DNA from: Paludibacteraceae bacterium
GTDB lineage: Bacteria > Bacteroidota > Bacteroidia > Bacteroidales > Paludibacteraceae
DNA length: 64,000 nt
Reading direction: 5' to 3'
Assembly: GCA_016297215.1 (NCBI GenBank)
Contig: JAEDGZ010000007.1
Span: forward strand, 1,312-65,311
Numbering within the stretch: the stretch's first letter is position 1; each line of letters opens with the position of its first letter. The translations under genes and the position numbers were made by a program. The notes under the pieces were generated by a model. That model did not search any database and was not told the DNA's origin. It saw nothing but the letters and a program-made list of their open reading frames with translations. Of this stretch, positions 341-63,918 are shown piece by piece.

Positions 341-3300
341 ATGAACTTTACGCATTTGCATGTACACTCGCACTATTCGATGCTGGACGGTATGTCGAAA
401 GTGCCGGAAATAGTAGAGAAATGCCTCCGCTGCGGGATGAACGCCGTGGCGCTGACCGACCACGGGAACATGTACGGCATCAAGGAGTTGCTGGACTATT
501 GCAAGAAAGTGAACGGCAGGCTGAAAGAGGCGGCGGGCGATGGCGCGTTCGTGCCCTTCAAGCCGATAGCGGGCTGCGAGTGTTACTGCGCGCGGCGCGG
601 GCGACACTCCATGACCGATGAGAAAGCCATGAACGGCGAGGGACGCGAGTATATCATCGACCGCTCCGGCTGGCACCTCATCCTGCTGGCGAAGAACAAA
701 GTGGGCTACCACAACCTCTGCCACATCGTGAGCGAGAGTTTCATGGACGATGCCTACAACTACACCGCGCGTATTGACCGCGAGTTGCTGGAGAAATACC
801 ACGAGGGGTTGATATGCTCGTCGGCATGCCTCGGCGGGGAGTTGCCGCAGAAAATCATGGCAGGCGACATGGCAGGCGCGGAGGAGACCATCGAGTGGTT
901 CAAGGGCGTGTTCGGCGAGGACTATTACATTGAGATTCAGCGTCATCAGACCGACAAGCCGCGAGCCGACCAAGTGGTGTATCAGCGGCAGAAAGAGGTG
1001 AACCCCATCCTGATAGACTTGGCGAAGAAGCACGGTGTGAAGGTGATTGCGACCAACGACGCGCACTTCGTGAACGAAGAGAACGGCGAGGCGCACGACC
1101 GTCTGATTTGTCTGAGCACGAACCACTACGTGGACGAAGAAGACCGCATGCACTACACCAAGCAGGAGTGGGTGAAGACGCCCGAGGAGATGGAAGCCAT
1201 CTTCGGCGACATCCCCGAGGCGCTGACGAACACGCAGGAGATAGTGGACAAGGTGGAGATTTACGACATCGACTCAGGTCCTATCATGCCTAACTTCCCC
1301 ATCCCCGAGGAGTTCGGCACCGAGGAGAGTTATCGCGAGAAGTTCACCCCCGAGGACCTGTTCAACGAGTTCACGCGCAACGAGCACGGCGAGGTGGTGT
1401 TGAGCCAAGAGGAGGCGGAGAAGAAGGTGAAGAAATTAGGCGGCTACGACAAACTCTACCGAATCAAGTTGGAGGCGGATTACCTTGCCTACCTTGCCTA
1501 CAAAGGGGCGCACGAGCGCTACGGCGAGGAGTTGACCGAGGAGCAGAAAGAGCGCATTCTCTTTGAGTTGCATATCATGAAGACGATGGGTTTCCCCGGG
1601 TACTTCCTGATAGTGATGGACTTCATCCGCGCGGCGCGCGAGGAGTTGGGCGTGAGCGTGGGTCCCGGGCGCGGTAGCGCGGCGGGCAGCGTGGTTGCCT
1701 ACTGTCTGCACATCACCGACCTTGACCCGCTGAAGTACGACCTGCTGTTCGAGCGTTTCCTCAACCCCGACCGTATCTCGCTGCCGGATATAGACACCGA
1801 CTTCGACGATGTGGGGCGTCCGAAGGTCATCGACTGGGTGACGGAGCGCTACGGCAAGACGCATGTGGCGCATATCGTAACCTACGGCAAGATGGCGACC
1901 AAGAGCGCGATAGCCGACGTGGGGCGCGTGCAGCGACTGCCGTTGGCGAAGGTGGCAGAACTGAAATCGTATATCCCCGACCGCAATTTTCCCGACAACA
2001 TCAAGGACGAGAAAGGCAAGAGCCCAAAAGTGAACTTGAAGAACTGCTACAAGTACGTGGACGAGTTGAAGCACGAGTTCGAGATGGGCGAGCCGAATGT
2101 GCGGGAGGTGCTGGAGTACGCCAAGCAGTTGGAGGACACCAATCGGCAGGTAGGTATCCACGCCTGCGGCATCATCATCGGCGCGGACGACCTGACGAAG
2201 TTCGCACCCCTCTCGAGCGTGTATGACCCGAAGTTGAAGAAGCGCGTGCTCGTAACCCAATACGACGGGCACGTGGTGGAGAGCGTGGGGCTTATCAAGA
2301 TGGACTTCCTCGGGCTTATCACGCTGAATATCATCAAGGAATGTATCAAGAATGTCAAGAAGCGCACGGGCGAGGTGGTGGACATTGACCATATCCCCAT
2401 CGACGACGCGCTGACCTACAAACTCTTCCAAGAAGGGCAGACGACGGGCGTCTTCCAGTTTGAGTCGGCAGGCATGCGCAAGTACATGAAGGAGTTGCAG
2501 CCGACGGTCATAGGCGACATCATCGCGATGAACGCGCTCTACCGCCCGGGACCGATGGACTACATCCCGCAGTTCATCCGCCGCAAGCAGGGCTTGGAGC
2601 CCGTTACCTACGACATCCCCGTGATGGAGAAATACCTGAAAGACACCTACGGCGTTACGGTCTATCAGGAACAGGTCATGCTCCTCTCGCGTCTGCTGGC
2701 GAACTTCACCCGCGGCGAGAGCGACAAACTGCGTAAGGCGATGGGTAAGAAGCAGATGGCGATACTGCAAGAGTTGAAGGGCAAGTTCATGGCAGGCGGC
2801 AAAGCCAACGGACACGATGAGAAGGTGTTGGAGAAGATTTGGAGCGACTGGGAGAAGTTCGCCTCGTATGCGTTCAACAAGTCGCACGCTGCCTGCTACT
2901 CGTGGGTAGCCTACCAGACGGCATACCTCAAAGCGCACTACCCCGCGGAGTTCCTCGCCGCCAACCTCACCGTATCGAAAGACAACATCAAGGAGGTAAC
3001 GAAGTTCATGGACGAGTGCAAGGAGATGCGCATACAGGTGCTGGAGCCCGATGTGAACGAGTCGGAGATGAACTTCACCGTCAACGACCAAGGCAACATC
3101 CGCTTCGGCTTGGGCGGCATCAAGGGCGTGGGCGAAGGTGCCGTGGAAGCCATCATCTCGGAGCGCGAGAAGAACGGTAAGTTCAAAGACATCTTCGACT
3201 TCCTCGAGCGTGTGAACCTGCAAGCCTGCAACCGCAAGACGGTGGAGAACCTCGCGCTGGCGGGGGCGTTCGACTGCTTCGACGGGCTCTACCGCGAGCA

Positions 3301-4291
3301 GTTGCTCGGGCTGAACAGCAAGGGCGAGAGCGTGCTGGAGACCCTGATGCGCTACGGCACCCTCTTCCAGCAAGATAAGCAGTTGCAGCAGAACTCGCTC
3401 TTCGGCGACATGGGCGACATGGGCGTGGCGGTGCAGCACCCCGAGATACCGCAGTCTCCGCGCTGGTCGGCTATCGAGCGGCTGAACATCGAGAAATCGC
3501 TCATTGGCATCTTCCTCTCCGCCCACCCGCTGGATGAGTACGAATACGAGGTGCGCGAGATGTGCGACATCACCGCCGCCGAACTGACCCTCTTCGACGG
3601 CTGGCGCACGCCCGAAGCCCGCGCCGCTGCCGCCAAGAATAGCGAAACCTCTGATAACTCCGAAGATTCCGAGAACTCCGATAACTCCGATTTCTCCGAT
3701 GACTCCGAAGAGAAACCCCGTATCACCCCCGAGGCCTTCCTCGCGAAGTACAAGAACAAAACGCTGCACTTCGGCGGTATCGTAACGAGCGCAGAGGTGG
3801 CGACTTCGAAGAAAGGGAATATCTACGGGCGCTATGTGGTGGAAGACTACACGGGTAGTTACCGGATGACCCTCTTCGGGGAGAACTACAAACGACTCTC
3901 GCCGATGTTGCAACCCAATGTGTATGTGTATATCACGGGCACCATCGCCCAGCGCGGTGCGGGCATGCGCTGGTTCAAAGAGCAGGCGGACGAACAGGCG
4001 GAGTTTGAACTGAATATCACCAACGTAGAGTTGCTCAATGAGGTGCAAGACCTCTATGGCAAGGGGCTGACGCTCCGTATCTCGCTGCCGAACTTGGACA
4101 ACGAGCTGATAGAGGAACTGAACGACCAATGCAAAGCCCACCCGGGCAAAGGGCAACTCCACATCCAGATAGCCGACCCCATACACAACTACCTCATCCA
4201 CATGACCTCCAAAAGCCGCTACATCCGCATCACCACCGACTTCTACCGCTGGCTCCAGATGCAAGAAAAGATACAAATAGTGAACGAATAA
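341..4291 (+). CDS. dnaE: DNA polymerase III alpha subunit
   Basis: 1316-aa ORF with an N-terminal PHP domain (MNFTHLHVHSHYSMLDG). Pol III alpha core motifs are present (GPGRGSAAGSVVAYCLHITDLDP, LPDIDTDF, NKSHAACYS), followed by a C-terminal OB fold. Confidence 0.97.
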   Translation: MNFTHLHVHSHYSMLDGMSKVPEIVEKCLRCGMNAVALTDHGNMYGIKELLDYCKKVNGRLKEAAGDGAFVPFKPIAGCECYCARRGRHSMTDEKAMNGEGREYIIDRSGWHLILLAKNKVGYHNLCHIVSESFMDDAYNYTARIDRELLEKYHEGLICSSACLGGELPQKIMAGDMAGAEETIEWFKGVFGEDYYIEIQRHQTDKPRADQVVYQRQKEVNPILIDLAKKHGVKVIATNDAHFVNEENGEAHDRLICLSTNHYVDEEDRMHYTKQEWVKTPEEMEAIFGDIPEALTNTQEIVDKVEIYDIDSGPIMPNFPIPEEFGTEESYREKFTPEDLFNEFTRNEHGEVVLSQEEAEKKVKKLGGYDKLYRIKLEADYLAYLAYKGAHERYGEELTEEQKERILFELHIMKTMGFPGYFLIVMDFIRAAREELGVSVGPGRGSAAGSVVAYCLHITDLDPLKYDLLFERFLNPDRISLPDIDTDFDDVGRPKVIDWVTERYGKTHVAHIVTYGKMATKSAIADVGRVQRLPLAKVAELKSYIPDRNFPDNIKDEKGKSPKVNLKNCYKYVDELKHEFEMGEPNVREVLEYAKQLEDTNRQVGIHACGIIIGADDLTKFAPLSSVYDPKLKKRVLVTQYDGHVVESVGLIKMDFLGLITLNIIKECIKNVKKRTGEVVDIDHIPIDDALTYKLFQEGQTTGVFQFESAGMRKYMKELQPTVIGDIIAMNALYRPGPMDYIPQFIRRKQGLEPVTYDIPVMEKYLKDTYGVTVYQEQVMLLSRLLANFTRGESDKLRKAMGKKQMAILQELKGKFMAGGKANGHDEKVLEKIWSDWEKFASYAFNKSHAACYSWVAYQTAYLKAHYPAEFLAANLTVSKDNIKEVTKFMDECKEMRIQVLEPDVNESEMNFTVNDQGNIRFGLGGIKGVGEGAVEAIISEREKNGKFKDIFDFLERVNLQACNRKTVENLALAGAFDCFDGLYREQLLGLNSKGESVLETLMRYGTLFQQDKQLQQNSLFGDMGDMGVAVQHPEIPQSPRWSAIERLNIEKSLIGIFLSAHPLDEYEYEVREMCDITAAELTLFDGWRTPEARAAAAKNSETSDNSEDSENSDNSDFSDDSEEKPRITPEAFLAKYKNKTLHFGGIVTSAEVATSKKGNIYGRYVVEDYTGSYRMTLFGENYKRLSPMLQPNVYVYITGTIAQRGAGMRWFKEQADEQAEFELNITNVELLNEVQDLYGKGLTLRISLPNLDNELIEELNDQCKAHPGKGQLHIQIADPIHNYLIHMTSKSRYIRITTDFYRWLQMQEKIQIVNE
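3653..3712 (+). repeat. 9-nt tandem array (GAnnAnTCC x6) in frame inside dnaE
   Basis: The DNA reads gataactcc gaagattcc gagaactcc gataactcc gatttctcc gatgactcc and encodes DNSEDSENSDNSDFSDDS. The unit is one mismatch from the reverse complement of the intergenic array cggagtaat at 49402-49426. Confidence 0.9.
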
Positions 4292-4304
4292 GAAACGATG
4301 ATGA

Positions 4305-32962: not shown

Positions 32963-33127
32963 GCAGGCGGGGACGCCTGCGCATCCGGACAGGTATCAGC
33001 AGGCAGACAGAATATGGTGCGGCATGGAGACCGCACCTCCTTGGAAGCCCCGACTGGTCGGGACGTACCCGGACATTTCTACCGCGGGCGAGACGCCCGC
33101 GTCCCCAGGGGACGCCTGCGCACCCGG
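32963..33127 (+). repeat. Cluster of GC-rich REP-like hairpins
   Basis: The cluster contains gcaggcggggacgcctgcgcatccggac (32963-32990) and ggtgcggcatggagaccgcacctccttgg (33016-33044). It also contains ccccgactggtcgggac and gcgggcgagacgcccgcgtccccaggggacgcctgcgcacccgg (33084-33127). Confidence 0.9.
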
Positions 33128-49477: not shown

Positions 49478-49502
49478 GCAGGCGAGACGCCTGCGTCCCC
49501 AG
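49478..49502 (+). repeat. REP-like hairpin
   Basis: The sequence gcaggcgagacgcctgcgtccccag is identical to 53562-53586 and 63048-63072. Confidence 0.95.
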
Positions 49503-51680: not shown

Positions 51681-51762
51681 ATTGAGTTTAGTGTGGAGAG
51701 TTTAGAGTTGAGCGATGATTAAACTCTTAACACTCAACTCTCAATACTCAACTCTCAACTCA
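51681..51762. repeat. Inverted pair of heptamer arrays (gagttga / tctcaac type)
   Basis: Segment 51681-51714 (attgagtttagtgtggagagtttagagttgagcg) is roughly the reverse complement of 51722-51762 (aactcttaacactcaactctcaatactcaactctcaactc). Confidence 0.8.
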
Positions 51763-51771
51763 AAAACAACC

Positions 51772-52524
51772 ATGATTACTTTTATCACAGGTGCATCGTC
51801 GGGCATAGGCGCGGCGTGCGCAAAGAAGTTCGCCCAAGGGGGCTATGACCTGATTCTGAACGCTCGTAACGTGGAGCGGCTGGAAGCGTTACAAAAAGAG
51901 ATAGAGACCTCCTATGGCAGGCGGGTGTTGCTGTTGCCCTTCGATGTCCGCGACCGTCAGGCAGCGCGCATGGCGGTCAATAACCTGCCCACGGAATGGC
52001 AGGATATAGACGTGCTCATCAACAACGCAGGGCTCGCGCTCGGGCTCGACAAAGAGTACGAAGGCAACGAAACCGACTACGACACGATGATAGAGACCAA
52101 CATCACCGCCCTCTTGATGATGACGCGGCTCGTAGTGCCCGCCATGGTCAAGCGCGGCAAGGGGCATATCATCAACATTGGCTCCGTGGCTGGCGATGCT
52201 GCCTACCCGGGTGGCTCCGTCTATTGCGCCACCAAAGCAGCGGTGAAGACCCTGTCGGACGGCTTGCGTATGGACCTCGCGCCCACGCCCCTGCGCGTTA
52301 CGAACATCAAACCCGGGCTCGTAGAGACCAACTTCAGCGTTACCCGTTTCCACGGCGACAAAGAGCGGGCAGACAATGTCTATAAGGGCATCAAGCCGCT
52401 GACGGGAGAGGACATAGCCGACGTGGCGCTATATGCGGCAAGCGCACCCGCACACGTGCAAGTGGCAGAGGTGCTGGTGCTCGCCACCCACCAAGCCTCC
52501 GGCAGCGTGGTACATCGGGAATGA
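51772..52524 (+). CDS. SDR family NAD(P)-dependent oxidoreductase (YdfG/serine 3-dehydrogenase-like)
   Basis: The start is at MITFITGASSGIG (51772); the ORF-track extension reads through the heptamer array. The YxxxK motif is (YCATKAAV) and the length is typical. Confidence 0.85.
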   Translation: MITFITGASSGIGAACAKKFAQGGYDLILNARNVERLEALQKEIETSYGRRVLLLPFDVRDRQAARMAVNNLPTEWQDIDVLINNAGLALGLDKEYEGNETDYDTMIETNITALLMMTRLVVPAMVKRGKGHIINIGSVAGDAAYPGGSVYCATKAAVKTLSDGLRMDLAPTPLRVTNIKPGLVETNFSVTRFHGDKERADNVYKGIKPLTGEDIADVALYAASAPAHVQVAEVLVLATHQASGSVVHRE

Positions 52525-52537
52525 TGAATTATGAATT

Positions 52538-53995
52538 ATGAGCGCTCATGCTCTGAATGCTCCGAATATTCTGATTACTCCGACAATCTTCAAATTTTCA
52601 AATTGCTTCATGCGTTCCGGTAGCAACAGACAATACACTCGAGAGGTGCGAGCAGACGACAGCACCTATATCCGCGTGGCAGGCACCTGCCTCGAGGAGA
52701 ATCATGCGTTCATCACCCTCGCCCGCCATTTCCGCAGCAAAGGGCTGCCCGTGCCCGAAATCTATGAGGTAAGCAACGATGAGATGGTCTATACTCAAGA
52801 GGACTTGGGCGACACCCTGCTCTTCGACTACATCCGCCACGGGCGCGAGACGGGCTGTTTCTCCGAGGAGGAGAAAAGCATGCTCCGCCGCGTCATTCGC
52901 CTGCTGCCGCATGTACAGACAGAGGGCACCGAGGGACTTGACTGGAGCGTATGTTACCCTGTCCCCGCTTTCGACCGCCAGTCCATCTTCTGGGACTTGA
53001 ACTATTTCAAGTACTGCTACCTGAAAGCCACGCAGCAGGACTTCTCCGAGCCTGCATTAGAGGCGGACTTCAATCGGCTGGCGGACACGTTGCTCGCCTT
53101 CCCATGCACGGGATTCATGTACCGCGATTTCCAGTCTCGCAACGTGATGGTGCGCGACAGAGTGCCCTATCTCATTGATTTCCAAGGCGGAAGACGTGGT
53201 CCCTTGCTCTATGACCTTGTCTCCTTCCTCTGGCAAGCCAAAGCGAACTTCCCCGCCGCGCTCCGCCAAGAACTAATAGCGGAATACGAAGACGAACTGC
53301 ACCACATACCCGAGGCAGGGCGATATATCTCCCTGCCGATTGGGGAGGCACACGTGGGGGTATTCGTCCTCTTCCGCACTTTGCAGGTGCTGGGAGCCTA
53401 CGGCTTCCGCGGCTATTTCGAGCGCAAGCCCCATTTCTTGCAGTCTATCCCCTTTGCCCTGCGCAATGCCGCGGAGTTGCTGCGCGAGCAGCCTGCGCTG
53501 GCGAGTGCGTATCCTGAGATAAGCCGTGTGCTGCTTGCAGTGGGAGAGTCGGTGCTTGACCGCAGGCGAGACGCCTGCGTCCCCAGTGAGGGCAACACGC
53601 CGCTCACCGTTACCGTCTGCTCGTTCTCCTTCAAGAAAGGCATCCCGGAGGATAAGTCGGGCAACGGCGGCGGCTATGTCTTCGACTGCCGCTCCACCCA
53701 CAACCCGGGCAAGTACGAGCAGTACAAACACCTGACGGGCAAAGACCAACCCGTGATAGATTTCTTGGAGCAGGACGGCGAGATACTGACATTCTTGGAA
53801 AGCGTCTATCGCCTCATTGACCACCATGTAGAGCGTTTTCTGGAGCGCGGGTTTTCCCACTTGCAAATCGCTTTCGGATGCACAGGCGGGCAACACCGCT
53901 CCGTCTATTCCGCCGAAGCCGCGGCGCGCCATCTGCGTGAGCGATTTCCGAACATCCATATCGAACTCTTCCATCGCGAGCAACCCCACCTATGA
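52538..53995 (+). CDS. amgK: Anomeric MurNAc/GlcNAc kinase (AmgK-like APH-fold) fused to a RapZ C-terminal domain
   Basis: The N-terminal part has APH/AmgK motifs (GSNRQY, YRDFQSRNVMV, LIDFQGGRRGPLLYDLVSFL). The C-terminal ~130 aa match the RapZ/YvcJ C-domain (FDCRSTHNPG...FGCTGGQHRSVY). The start may be 52610 (MRSGSNRQY). Confidence 0.75.
   Translation: MSAHALNAPNILITPTIFKFSNCFMRSGSNRQYTREVRADDSTYIRVAGTCLEENHAFITLARHFRSKGLPVPEIYEVSNDEMVYTQEDLGDTLLFDYIRHGRETGCFSEEEKSMLRRVIRLLPHVQTEGTEGLDWSVCYPVPAFDRQSIFWDLNYFKYCYLKATQQDFSEPALEADFNRLADTLLAFPCTGFMYRDFQSRNVMVRDRVPYLIDFQGGRRGPLLYDLVSFLWQAKANFPAALRQELIAEYEDELHHIPEAGRYISLPIGEAHVGVFVLFRTLQVLGAYGFRGYFERKPHFLQSIPFALRNAAELLREQPALASAYPEISRVLLAVGESVLDRRRDACVPSEGNTPLTVTVCSFSFKKGIPEDKSGNGGGYVFDCRSTHNPGKYEQYKHLTGKDQPVIDFLEQDGEILTFLESVYRLIDHHVERFLERGFSHLQIAFGCTGGQHRSVYSAEAAARHLRERFPNIHIELFHREQPHL
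53562..53586 (+). repeat. REP-like hairpin inside the amgK-rapZ_C ORF (domain linker)
   Basis: The sequence gcaggcgagacgcctgcgtccccag is translated in frame as RRDACVPS. Confidence 0.95.
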
Positions 53996-54762
53996 ACGCC
54001 ATGATTTTCGCCGCAGGGCTCGGCACCCGTCTCAAGCCCTTCACCGACAGCCATCCCAAAGCCCTCCTACCCCTCGCATGCAAGACCCTGCTCCAATGGC
54101 AGATAGAGCAACTGCATGCTGCCGGCATCACTGACATCGTGGTCAATGTGCACCACCATGCCGAGCAGATAATCGACTACCTGCAAAGGCAGGATTTCGG
54201 CTGCCATATCCGTATCAGCGATGAGCGCGCTGCATTGCTCGACACCGGCGGCGGCTTGCGCAAAGCCATGCACGAAGCCGCAGCAGACACGGACGACACC
54301 CCGTGGCTGGTATGCAACGTGGACATACTGAGCAACATCCGCCTGCCGCAGTTTATCCAAAGCCATCGTCCAAAAGACCTTGCCACGCTCGTGGTGAGTC
54401 AACGGCAGACGCAGCGCTACCTCCTCTTCGATGCCGACCAACTTCTCAAAGGATGGACGAACATCACAACGGGGGAACTCCGCCCACAAACACTCCCCTC
54501 CGAAACTGCGGTGCAATACGCCCTACTCGCTTTCTCCGGCATGCAGATCGTCTCCCCGCGGCTGTTACCCTATATGGATGAGGTAGCAAAAGAAAAGGGC
54601 GATAAGTTTTCGCTTATCGACCTTTATCTATCTATCTGCGAGCACCATCCCGAAGAGGTACTGCGCGCTTATATCCCTGCCGACTACCGCATGATGGACG
54701 TAGGCAAAACCGCCCAACTGAAAGACGCAGAGCGCTTCGCCGAGCAATTAACCGTCCGATGA
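53992..54762 (+). CDS. murU: MurNAc-alpha-1-phosphate uridylyltransferase-like nucleotidyltransferase
   Basis: 256 aa with the sugar-nucleotidyltransferase N-terminus MIFAAGLGTRLKPFTDSHPKALLPL. An ATGA overlap links it to amgK. Confidence 0.7.
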   Translation: MNAMIFAAGLGTRLKPFTDSHPKALLPLACKTLLQWQIEQLHAAGITDIVVNVHHHAEQIIDYLQRQDFGCHIRISDERAALLDTGGGLRKAMHEAAADTDDTPWLVCNVDILSNIRLPQFIQSHRPKDLATLVVSQRQTQRYLLFDADQLLKGWTNITTGELRPQTLPSETAVQYALLAFSGMQIVSPRLLPYMDEVAKEKGDKFSLIDLYLSICEHHPEEVLRAYIPADYRMMDVGKTAQLKDAERFAEQLTVR

Positions 54763-54790: not shown

Positions 54791-55261
54791 ATGAGAATTA
54801 AGTTATTAGTCGTTGGCAAAACCACCGATAGCCGCATCGTTTCACTGATAGAAGATTATCAAAATCGCCTAAGACACTATGTGCCTTTCTCGTTGGAGGT
54901 GCTGCCGGAGTTGCGAAATGCCAAGTCGCTGAGCGAAGAGCAGCAGAAGACGGCGGAGGGCGAGATGATTCTCAAAACCGTATCTGCTGCCGAAGAAATG
55001 ATATTGCTGGATGAGCACGGCAAGGAGTTTCGGTCAGTGGAGTTCAGCGAGTATTTGCAGAAGAAGATGTCTGCGGGGCGGGATATCGTGTTTGTAGTGG
55101 GCGGTCCATACGGTTTCTCGGAGGCAGTCTATGCACGCGCCAACAGCAAAATCTCCTTGAGCAAGATGACCTTCTCCCATCAGATGGTGCGCCTATTCTT
55201 TGTAGAGCAGATATACCGCGCCATGACCATCCTCCGCCATGAACCCTACCACCACGAATAG
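54791..55261 (+). CDS. rlmH: 23S rRNA (pseudouridine1915-N3)-methyltransferase
   Basis: 156 aa, SPOUT fold, with C-terminal LSKMTFSHQMVRLFFVEQIYRAMTI..EPYHH typical of RlmH. Confidence 0.9.
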   Translation: MRIKLLVVGKTTDSRIVSLIEDYQNRLRHYVPFSLEVLPELRNAKSLSEEQQKTAEGEMILKTVSAAEEMILLDEHGKEFRSVEFSEYLQKKMSAGRDIVFVVGGPYGFSEAVYARANSKISLSKMTFSHQMVRLFFVEQIYRAMTILRHEPYHHE

Positions 55262-63047: not shown

Positions 63048-63126
63048 GCAGGCGAGACGCCTGCGTCCCCAGTAGTTCGTTATCTGCTTTATCTTATGGT
63101 GCAGCCTGGAGACCGCACCTCCTTGG
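63048..63126 (+). repeat. REP-like hairpin pair
   Basis: The pair is gcaggcgagacgcctgcgtccccag (63048-63072) and ggtgcagcctggagaccgcacctccttgg (63098-63126). The same two modules occur in the 32963-33127 cluster. Confidence 0.9.
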
Positions 63127-63854: not shown

Positions 63855-63918
63855 GCAGGCGAGATGTCTGCGTCCCCGGTACTTTGTTTTAGCAGGCGGG
63901 GACGCCTACGCACCCGGG
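63855..63918 (+). repeat. Two REP-like hairpins
   Basis: The two copies are gcaggcgagatgtctgcgtccccgg (63855-63879) and gcaggcggggacgcctacgcacccggg (63892-63918). Confidence 0.9.

Follow-up and report, generated by a model that had tools for sequence, protein, structure and literature searches.

What does the C-terminal domain of the ribonuclease adaptor RapZ do when it is joined to a sugar kinase? This question is raised by a gene in a 64,000-nt stretch of contig JAEDGZ010000007.1 from a Paludibacteraceae bacterium (assembly GCA_016297215.1, positions 1,312 to 65,311 of the forward strand; this whole stretch is called the window here). The gene is predicted to encode an AmgK-like kinase with the aminoglycoside phosphotransferase (APH) fold followed by a RapZ C-terminal domain (RapZ_C), and directly downstream is a gene predicted to encode a MurU-like nucleotidyltransferase. 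AmgK and MurU are the anabolic recycling pair for N-acetylmuramic acid (MurNAc) of Pseudomonas putida and P. aeruginosa. RapZ has been studied almost only as an adaptor of RNase E in enterobacteria, and both the ligand and the chemistry of its conserved pocket are at issue. Judged from sequence, the arrangement in the window is genuine. It represents a highly conserved and widely distributed version of a known pathway, of which we found no study. We propose, with about even confidence, that the three modules form a salvage unit in which RapZ_C would bind a phosphorylated sugar or a nucleotide sugar and tune or assist the kinase.

An AmgK-like kinase carrying a RapZ C-terminal domain

The open reading frame (ORF) listing of the window contains a plus-strand frame of 485 aa (52538..53995). 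Pfam places the APH domain (PF01636) at residues 30-253 of this frame (E 9e-14) and RapZ_C (PF22740) at residues 356-481, where its 117 bits exceed the gathering score of 27 (E 7.5e-34) and profile positions 1-119 of 121 are covered. An earlier note on this DNA had claimed such a fusion and had quoted two motifs for the added domain; both are present, as FDCRSTHNPG and GCTGGQHRSV, and the fusion is confirmed in one frame. It had also proposed that an APH kinase takes the place of the P-loop module of RapZ, and this agrees with the lack of any match to the N-terminal P-loop domain of RapZ with its Walker A and B motifs (PF03668) in the whole genome (1.92 Mb in 45 contigs). Exactly one RapZ_C was found in this genome, the one described here, and a check for a separate full-length rapZ found none. 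A Bacteroides thetaiotaomicron control gave the same pattern of one RapZ_C and no P-loop domain. The model for full-length RapZ/YvcJ (NF003828) scored 102 bits against a cut-off of 244 and was covered at profile positions 152-277 only. By these domain scores, the protein belongs to the RapZ_C domain family and not to the RapZ family.

Structure prediction and searches of solved structures led to the same domain assignment. In a sequence search of the PDB, the tail of the protein matched the C-terminal domain (CTD) of Escherichia coli RapZ (5o5s, E 1e-16). AlphaFold2 modelled the protein in its 461-aa form, using an alignment of 40 sequences, with a mean predicted local distance difference test score (pLDDT) of 89.5 and a predicted template modelling score (pTM) of 0.69. 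Confidence was low only in the linker (residues 321-328), which fits two well-defined domains without a fixed mutual orientation. When the C-terminal domain was modelled alone, the pLDDT was 90.6 and the pTM 0.87, and Foldseek aligned this model to the RapZ CTD with a template modelling (TM) score of 0.81-0.87, 36-37% identity and a root-mean-square deviation of 1.8-2.0 A (for 5o5s, TM 0.81/0.87, 37% and 2.0 A). When the PDB was searched with a profile of the domain at E<=10, RapZ alone was returned, and Foldseek with the domain model found no significant relative other than RapZ, the next matches having E > 0.1. Because RapZ was the only relative found by both searches, kinship with neither phosphofructokinases nor Cys-phosphatases is supported.

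The domain is the most conserved part of the protein. Across 40 homologues, mean pairwise identity was 0.68 in RapZ_C, 0.61 in the kinase and 0.30 in the linker, and 37 columns of the 132-residue RapZ_C domain were invariant, the pocket included. Invariant positions comprise S338, F339, G344, P346, D348, a GNGGG loop, F358-D-C-R361, N365-P-G367, R409, R413, G423-C-T-G-G427, H429-R-S-V-Y433, H455 and E457. In the AlphaFold2 model, the GCTGGQHRS loop sits between a strand (417-424) and a helix (430-445). The corresponding pocket of RapZ, which holds sulphate or malonate and is the proposed site for glucosamine-6-phosphate (GlcN6P), is formed by H190, T248, G249, H252 and R253 with C247 close by, and the same pocket contacts the RNA backbone (PMC9841335). 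We found that the equivalents of C247, T248, G249, H252 and R253 are kept here, and that H190 alone differs, being Gly.

Other features of RapZ have been lost. When the basic residues along its RNA path were mapped through the alignment, K170, R184 and R196 had basic equivalents, whereas K194, R211, R238 and K251 are replaced by Q, Q, F and Q (four of the seven in the window protein). Nor is the polybasic tail retained; the window protein ends in HREQPHL, and in most homologues HREQ stands at the C-terminal end or close to it. Thus, the domain keeps the anion pocket and sheds much of the RNA equipment of RapZ. The E. coli RapZ CTD (5o5s, 5o5o, 8b0i) shares with it the fold, the C-T-G-G-x-H-R-S pocket and the equivalents of K170 and R184, but lacks the GNGGG insertion and has a histidine (H190) where the domain described here has glycine. 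The partner domains also differ: E. coli RapZ, an RNase E adaptor and GlcN6P sensor, joins its CTD to a P-loop NTPase domain, whereas the partner here is an APH kinase.

The kinase part has the APH fold with a catalytic Asp/Asn loop and a metal-binding Asp, as expected of an AmgK. AmgK was its best NCBIfam family and the sole such match in the genome. Both equivalog models scored far under their cut-offs, with 48 bits against 550 for NF045759 and 29 bits against 500 for NF045698, the latter being the Caulobacter-type AmgK model according to our controls. The solved structure closest to the kinase is 3csv, a putative aminoglycoside phosphotransferase of Silicibacter sp. TM1040 from structural genomics. 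It was matched by the kinase body in a phmmer search of PDB sequences (E 6e-13) and was the best Foldseek match of the whole model (E 6e-14, TMt 0.76, 24% identity), but that protein, 322-333 aa long and uncharacterised in function, has a single domain and no RapZ_C. Based on these matches, the kinase is classed as AmgK-like, under the curated thresholds, with AmgK as the closest characterised family.

The downstream gene gave a similar result. MurU (NF045761) was its top NCBIfam family by a clear margin, at 109 bits (E 3e-31) with the cut-off of 250 unreached, and its N-terminus, MNAMIFAAGLGTRL, can be compared with the GxGTR motif of MurU. The locus therefore resembles the Pseudomonas-type AmgK/MurU pair in having an APH-fold kinase, a small sugar-1-phosphate nucleotidyltransferase gene directly after it and intact catalytic motifs, and differs from it in the extra 130-aa RapZ_C and in scores far under the equivalog cut-offs. 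Of the AmgK and murU identities given in the earlier note, the adjacency of the two genes stands, and the names hold as best-hit labels, at scores that reach none of the equivalog cut-offs.

The start codon of the transferase gene overlaps the stop codon of the kinase gene by 4 nt (ATGA, read as cta-TGA and ATG-a), and from this overlap we infer translational coupling, as the earlier note had claimed. The overlap occurs only in the closest relatives (loci L002-L008); spacers in other Bacteroidales are typically 12-90 nt.

Linkage to the kinase and transferase across Bacteroidota

We surveyed 301 genomes drawn evenly from the phylum, counting kinase-domain orthologues at E < 1e-40. RapZ_C was found in 43 genomes and a kinase orthologue in 45, and all 43 genomes with RapZ_C had the kinase. 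In 37 of the 43, a single open frame of 475-530 aa encodes both parts. Another four have them as adjacent separate genes, in the order kinase, stop codon, short spacer, a RapZ_C gene that encodes about 135 aa from an ATG of its own, and then the transferase; this split form was seen in each of the three species sampled from one genus (g11; for example, loci L160 and L164) and in one further genome (G101, locus L162). In a genome from the genus of the window (G075, locus L161 on contig C10, at about 3290-3330), the kinase frame ends in …YPYIYAISNDLLLLL and a stop codon, and RapZ_C begins from its own ATG (MLLVTIYSFSFKRG…) in another frame that overlaps the 3' end of the kinase gene, with the linker almost wholly missing. 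The locus holds either a true split into two overlapping genes or an error of 1 nt in the assembly. In another genome (G261), a kinase orthologue and a 136-aa RapZ_C frame lie on different contigs (C5 and C30). No RapZ_C frame of the size expected for canonical RapZ was present among the 43 genomes.

The MurU-like gene is directly downstream of the kinase in about 140 of the 155 Bacteroidales loci that were retrieved. The complete co-occurrence of RapZ_C with the kinase and the gene order retained when the two are split support a functional tie between RapZ_C and the kinase/transferase pair; fusion, gene order and phyletic pattern all link them in a large phylum that includes the main gut Bacteroidales.

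The earlier note had treated the fusion as a local oddity. This view has to be given up, since the fusion is a common form across Bacteroidota, though, of the four further Bacteroidales families in the sample, three have neither part. The report that Porphyromonas gingivalis is without AmgK (PMC7670621) fits the families lacking both. More than 8000 database proteins carry both PF22740 and PF01636. Because the fusion is not unique to the window and its architecture is already visible in automatic domain annotation, the surprise it holds is limited. In one heavily sampled family (f21), the AmgK-like kinases are all remote (22-32% identity, with most frames at about 335-406 aa) and RapZ_C is missing; these kinases could be a domain-less counterpart and serve as a natural control.

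The distribution also bears on a laboratory tool. T. forsythia (Tannerella forsythia) AmgK and MurU expressed in E. coli convert MurNAc probes (PMC10941766; PMC13691567). In four Tannerella sp. genomes, the sole AmgK-like gene was the one at the fused locus, with an open frame of 478-512 aa. T. forsythia itself was not among the matches listed (the best 80 loci of each scan), where the genus was represented by Tannerella sp. metagenome-assembled genomes only. Since these Tannerella sp. genomes have the fused type only, the T. forsythia AmgK used as a tool probably is of this type too and carries RapZ_C. The widely used Tannerella AmgK/MurU cassette for labelling peptidoglycan with MurNAc probes thus probably contains an unexamined RapZ_C. 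Tanf_08375, considered as a candidate for the T. forsythia AmgK gene, was rejected, as it is MurT.

Pathway context and possible roles of the RapZ C-terminal domain

Besides Pseudomonas and T. forsythia, the AmgK/MurU bypass has been shown in Caulobacter (PMC13046382) and is reported for Legionella (PMC11957156). A published survey counts Bacteroides among the holders of AmgK/MurU (PMC8054146), and T. forsythia imports MurNAc, its kinase having been proposed to use the free sugar (PMC7670621). The enzymes that usually supply or consume MurNAc and MurNAc-6-phosphate (MurNAc-6P) were searched for in the window genome. AnmK is missing from this genome, from its genus and family and from all eight Bacteroidales sampled, and it is present in 203 of the 301 genomes of the phylum. 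Because there is no AnmK, the pair is not fed by the Pseudomonas route from anhydro-MurNAc (anhMurNAc) through MurNAc-6P and MupP (MupP itself was not searched for), and with that scheme inapplicable the kinase must use free sugar that is taken up or otherwise released. MurA is present, so de novo synthesis of UDP-MurNAc is available.

In the mechanism we propose, the kinase would take an N-acetyl amino sugar imported from the gut and phosphorylate it at C1; MurNAc would be the likeliest substrate, with N-acetylglucosamine (GlcNAc) as a possible one. The transferase would turn the sugar-1-phosphate into a UDP-sugar, feeding peptidoglycan synthesis alongside MurA. The RapZ_C pocket may bind a phosphorylated or nucleotide sugar, the candidates being the UDP-sugar end product, the product of the kinase, and GlcN6P, the ligand proposed for E. 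coli RapZ. Such binding could tune or assist the kinase by allostery, by oligomerisation or by hand-over to the transferase, and RapZ_C would not act as an RNase adaptor.

Several points weigh against this proposal. The AmgK and MurU scores are so far under their cut-offs that the substrate could be another sugar. AnmK, MurQ and NamZ are all missing from the window genome, and together with these scores this means that we can only infer MurNAc as the substrate. The equivalent of H190 in the RapZ pocket is an invariant Gly here, that of the NPG motif. Two genomes (G029 and G217) have a kinase orthologue, in frames of 332 and 366 aa, and RapZ_C nowhere in the genome, so the domain is dispensable in some lineages. 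Among the papers searched, none combined AmgK with RapZ, or RapZ with a Bacteroidetes phosphotransferase. Finally, sequence alone cannot tell a binding or regulatory role of RapZ_C from a catalytic or purely structural one, and these other roles have to be weighed.

A catalytic role would have the Cys-x5-Arg-Ser loop of RapZ_C perform phosphoryl transfer on an amino-sugar phosphate, supplying or processing the substrate of the kinase; it might be a sugar-6-phosphate phosphatase or an enzyme of 6-P/1-P transfer, analogous to the MupP of Pseudomonas. We regard this as unlikely. The loop C424-TGGQH-R430-S431 fits the C-x5-R-(S/T) loop of Cys-phosphatases between a strand and a helix, a resemblance at the level of the motif only, and C424 and R430 are invariant with this spacing on a strand-loop-helix element. 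The C247S variant of E. coli RapZ is inactive, the thiol, in the words of the authors, "may fulfil a specialised catalytic function", and a crystal of the RapZ CTD with GlcN6P shows "a chemically transformed product" (PMC9841335). The invariant polar residues D348, N352, D359, C360, R361, N365, D379, R409, R413, H429, H455 and E457 are also more suggestive of an active site than of a plain binding surface. The overall fold argues otherwise, since the best matches among Cys-phosphatases (PTP/LMW-PTP type, that is, protein tyrosine phosphatases and those of low molecular weight), DUSP10 and KAP, gave E 0.5-1.1 and TM 0.19-0.27, so that similarity is not supported. The lineage moreover has no known enzyme that makes MurNAc-6P, which weakens the case for RapZ_C as a MurNAc-6P phosphatase; with no AnmK here or in the sampled Bacteroidales and no MurQ here, the substrate of a catalytic loop would not be MurNAc-6P from a known route. 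No activity has been reported. We also considered RapZ_C as a replacement for MupP, in which case the fusion should track AnmK, and rejected it: about 34 of the 43 genomes with RapZ_C have AnmK and nine lack it, against 203 of 301 with AnmK overall, so that its presence does not track the fusion. A broader form of the catalytic idea is that the RapZ C-terminal fold was at root a part of amino-sugar metabolism, in which the Cys-x5-Arg-Ser loop does or gates phosphoryl transfer, and that the RNase-adaptor role is a late re-use. We consider this, too, a speculative and rather unlikely possibility.

RapZ_C might instead be a structural adaptor that di- or tetramerises the kinase, docks the transferase for channelling of the sugar-1-phosphate, or both, with a pocket that has no signalling role. 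RapZ CTDs form symmetric dimers within the tetramer (PMC9841335), as such an adaptor would, and the strict order of kinase, RapZ_C and transferase, kept even when the parts are split, together with the start/stop overlap in the window, speaks for it. A pure scaffold, however, needs neither the invariant anion-pocket residues nor the GNGGG loop, and the kinase and RapZ_C lie on different contigs in G261. We consider this explanation improbable.

A further alternative concerns the substrate, not the role of the domain, and can overlap with the other readings. The pair might activate GlcNAc, N-acetylgalactosamine (GalNAc) or some other hexose or hexosamine that goes into a surface glycan, with RapZ_C serving that route. 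The low AmgK and MurU scores (48/550, 29/500 and 109/250 bits), the missing AnmK, MurQ and NamZ, and the presence among the closest solved folds of kinases for unrelated substrates are what this explanation would lead one to expect. AmgK and MurU nonetheless remain the top families for both genes, the fused type is the only one in the four Tannerella sp. genomes and the T. forsythia enzymes convert MurNAc, and Bacteroides is counted among the AmgK/MurU holders. Its probability seems to us as low as that of the structural adaptor.

Much less probable is that RapZ_C hands a bound small RNA to a ribonuclease, controlling amino-sugar synthesis as in enterobacteria. The shared fold, the contact of the RapZ pocket with RNA and the retained K170, R184 and R196 equivalents would allow this, but the protein has no P-loop domain and no basic tail, the K194, R211, R238 and K251 equivalents are non-basic and that of H190 is Gly, and the strict linkage to the kinase and transferase points to metabolism. 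Freed from the P-loop half and from RNA features of RapZ, and tied to a two-enzyme sugar salvage, the domain offers a simple system in which its function can be tested.

Linker repeat, gene boundaries and neighbouring genes

The linker between the two domains contains a GC-rich 25-nt hairpin repeat (GCAGGCGAGACGCCTGCGTCCCCAG) resembling repetitive extragenic palindromic (REP) elements (Table 1). Exact copies lie at 49478-49502 and 63048-63072 of the window and near copies at 33084-33108 and 63855-63879, with none expected by chance. In four public gut metagenome runs, the depth of words from the repeat was about 860-4300, compared with about 4-17 in its flanks. This abundance means that contigs built from short reads break there, and no single Logan contig spans the linker repeat. 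Linkers are short in most Bacteroidales (…L-K-QF-D…) and longer, with low complexity, in Paludibacteraceae.

A repeat at which de Bruijn contigs of the likely source run break, and the G075 locus with kinase and RapZ_C in different frames, could be taken to mean that the fusion is an assembly or annotation artefact in which two genes were joined at the repeat. The earlier note had named a stop or frameshift near 53560-53590 as the sign of such an error, and none was seen: in the four metagenome runs, two flanking contigs overlapped exactly within the repeat, with no insertions or deletions near these positions. Independent assemblies at 94-97% identity encode intact fused proteins of 461-485 aa. 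The two flanks are consecutive parts of one conserved protein, as thousands of fused homologues without the repeat attest; full-length matches without it came from hundreds of species genomes among the matches listed, in Bacteroides, Phocaeicola, Parabacteroides, Tannerella sp., Muribaculaceae, Prevotellaceae, Paludibacter and Dysgonomonadaceae. We therefore reject an artefact, whose probability we hold to be next to nil.

The start of the gene is probably the second ATG of the frame, at 52610 (MRSGSNRQY...), with the 72 nt upstream forming a 5' leader rather than coding sequence. This ATG corresponds to the start region of all 40 aligned homologues, near SGSNR, and the public annotation of the same sequence (P0002, 461 aa) begins there. 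The 24 residues that the first ATG would add are common to no homologue, and the stretch that encodes them is A/T-rich. Gene callers disagree on this start, the near-identical proteins P0001 and P0002 being annotated with 485 and 461 aa. The database label for such proteins is "phosphotransferase" only. Promoter and terminator scans gave nothing above shuffled expectation.

Table 1. Features of the kinase-RapZ_C locus and the adjoining transferase gene (positions in the window).
Feature	Position	Strand	Basis or remark
Upstream in-frame extension, 24 codons from first ATG	52538..52609	+	Homologue starts, public annotation, A/T-richness
Kinase-RapZ_C coding sequence, 461 aa plus stop (probable start)	52610..53995	+	Homologue alignment, public annotation, Pfam, AlphaFold2
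APH-fold AmgK-like kinase domain including C-terminal helical extension (aa 1-322)	52610..53575	+	Pfam APH, NCBIfam AmgK, fold match 3csv
Catalytic loop YRDFQSRN	53120..53143	+	R172, D173, N178 invariant in 40 homologues
IDFQ metal-binding motif	53174..53185	+	D190 invariant in 40 homologues
REP-like hairpin, 25 nt, in variable interdomain linker, in frame, coding RRRDACVPS	53562..53586	+	Repeat search of window
RapZ C-terminal domain (PF22740)	53603..53980	+	Pfam, AlphaFold2 domain model, Foldseek
Invariant GNGGG loop, 5-residue insertion relative to E. coli RapZ	53660..53674	+	40-homologue alignment, PDB alignment
FDCRSTHNPG motif	FDCR 53681-53692, NPG 53702-53710	+	Translated window
GCTGGQHRS anion-binding loop (= RapZ C247, T248, G249, H252, R253)	53876..53902	+	Invariant in 40/40 homologues
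MurU-like sugar-1-phosphate nucleotidyltransferase	53992..54762	+	Pfam NTP_transferase PF00483 (E 1e-16); NCBIfam MurU

The locus is flanked upstream by a gene for a short-chain dehydrogenase (51715-52524) and downstream by one for an RlmH-type SPOUT methyltransferase (54791-55261). The position of the dehydrogenase gene is kept only in the closest relatives, which suggests that neither flanking gene is part of the conserved unit.

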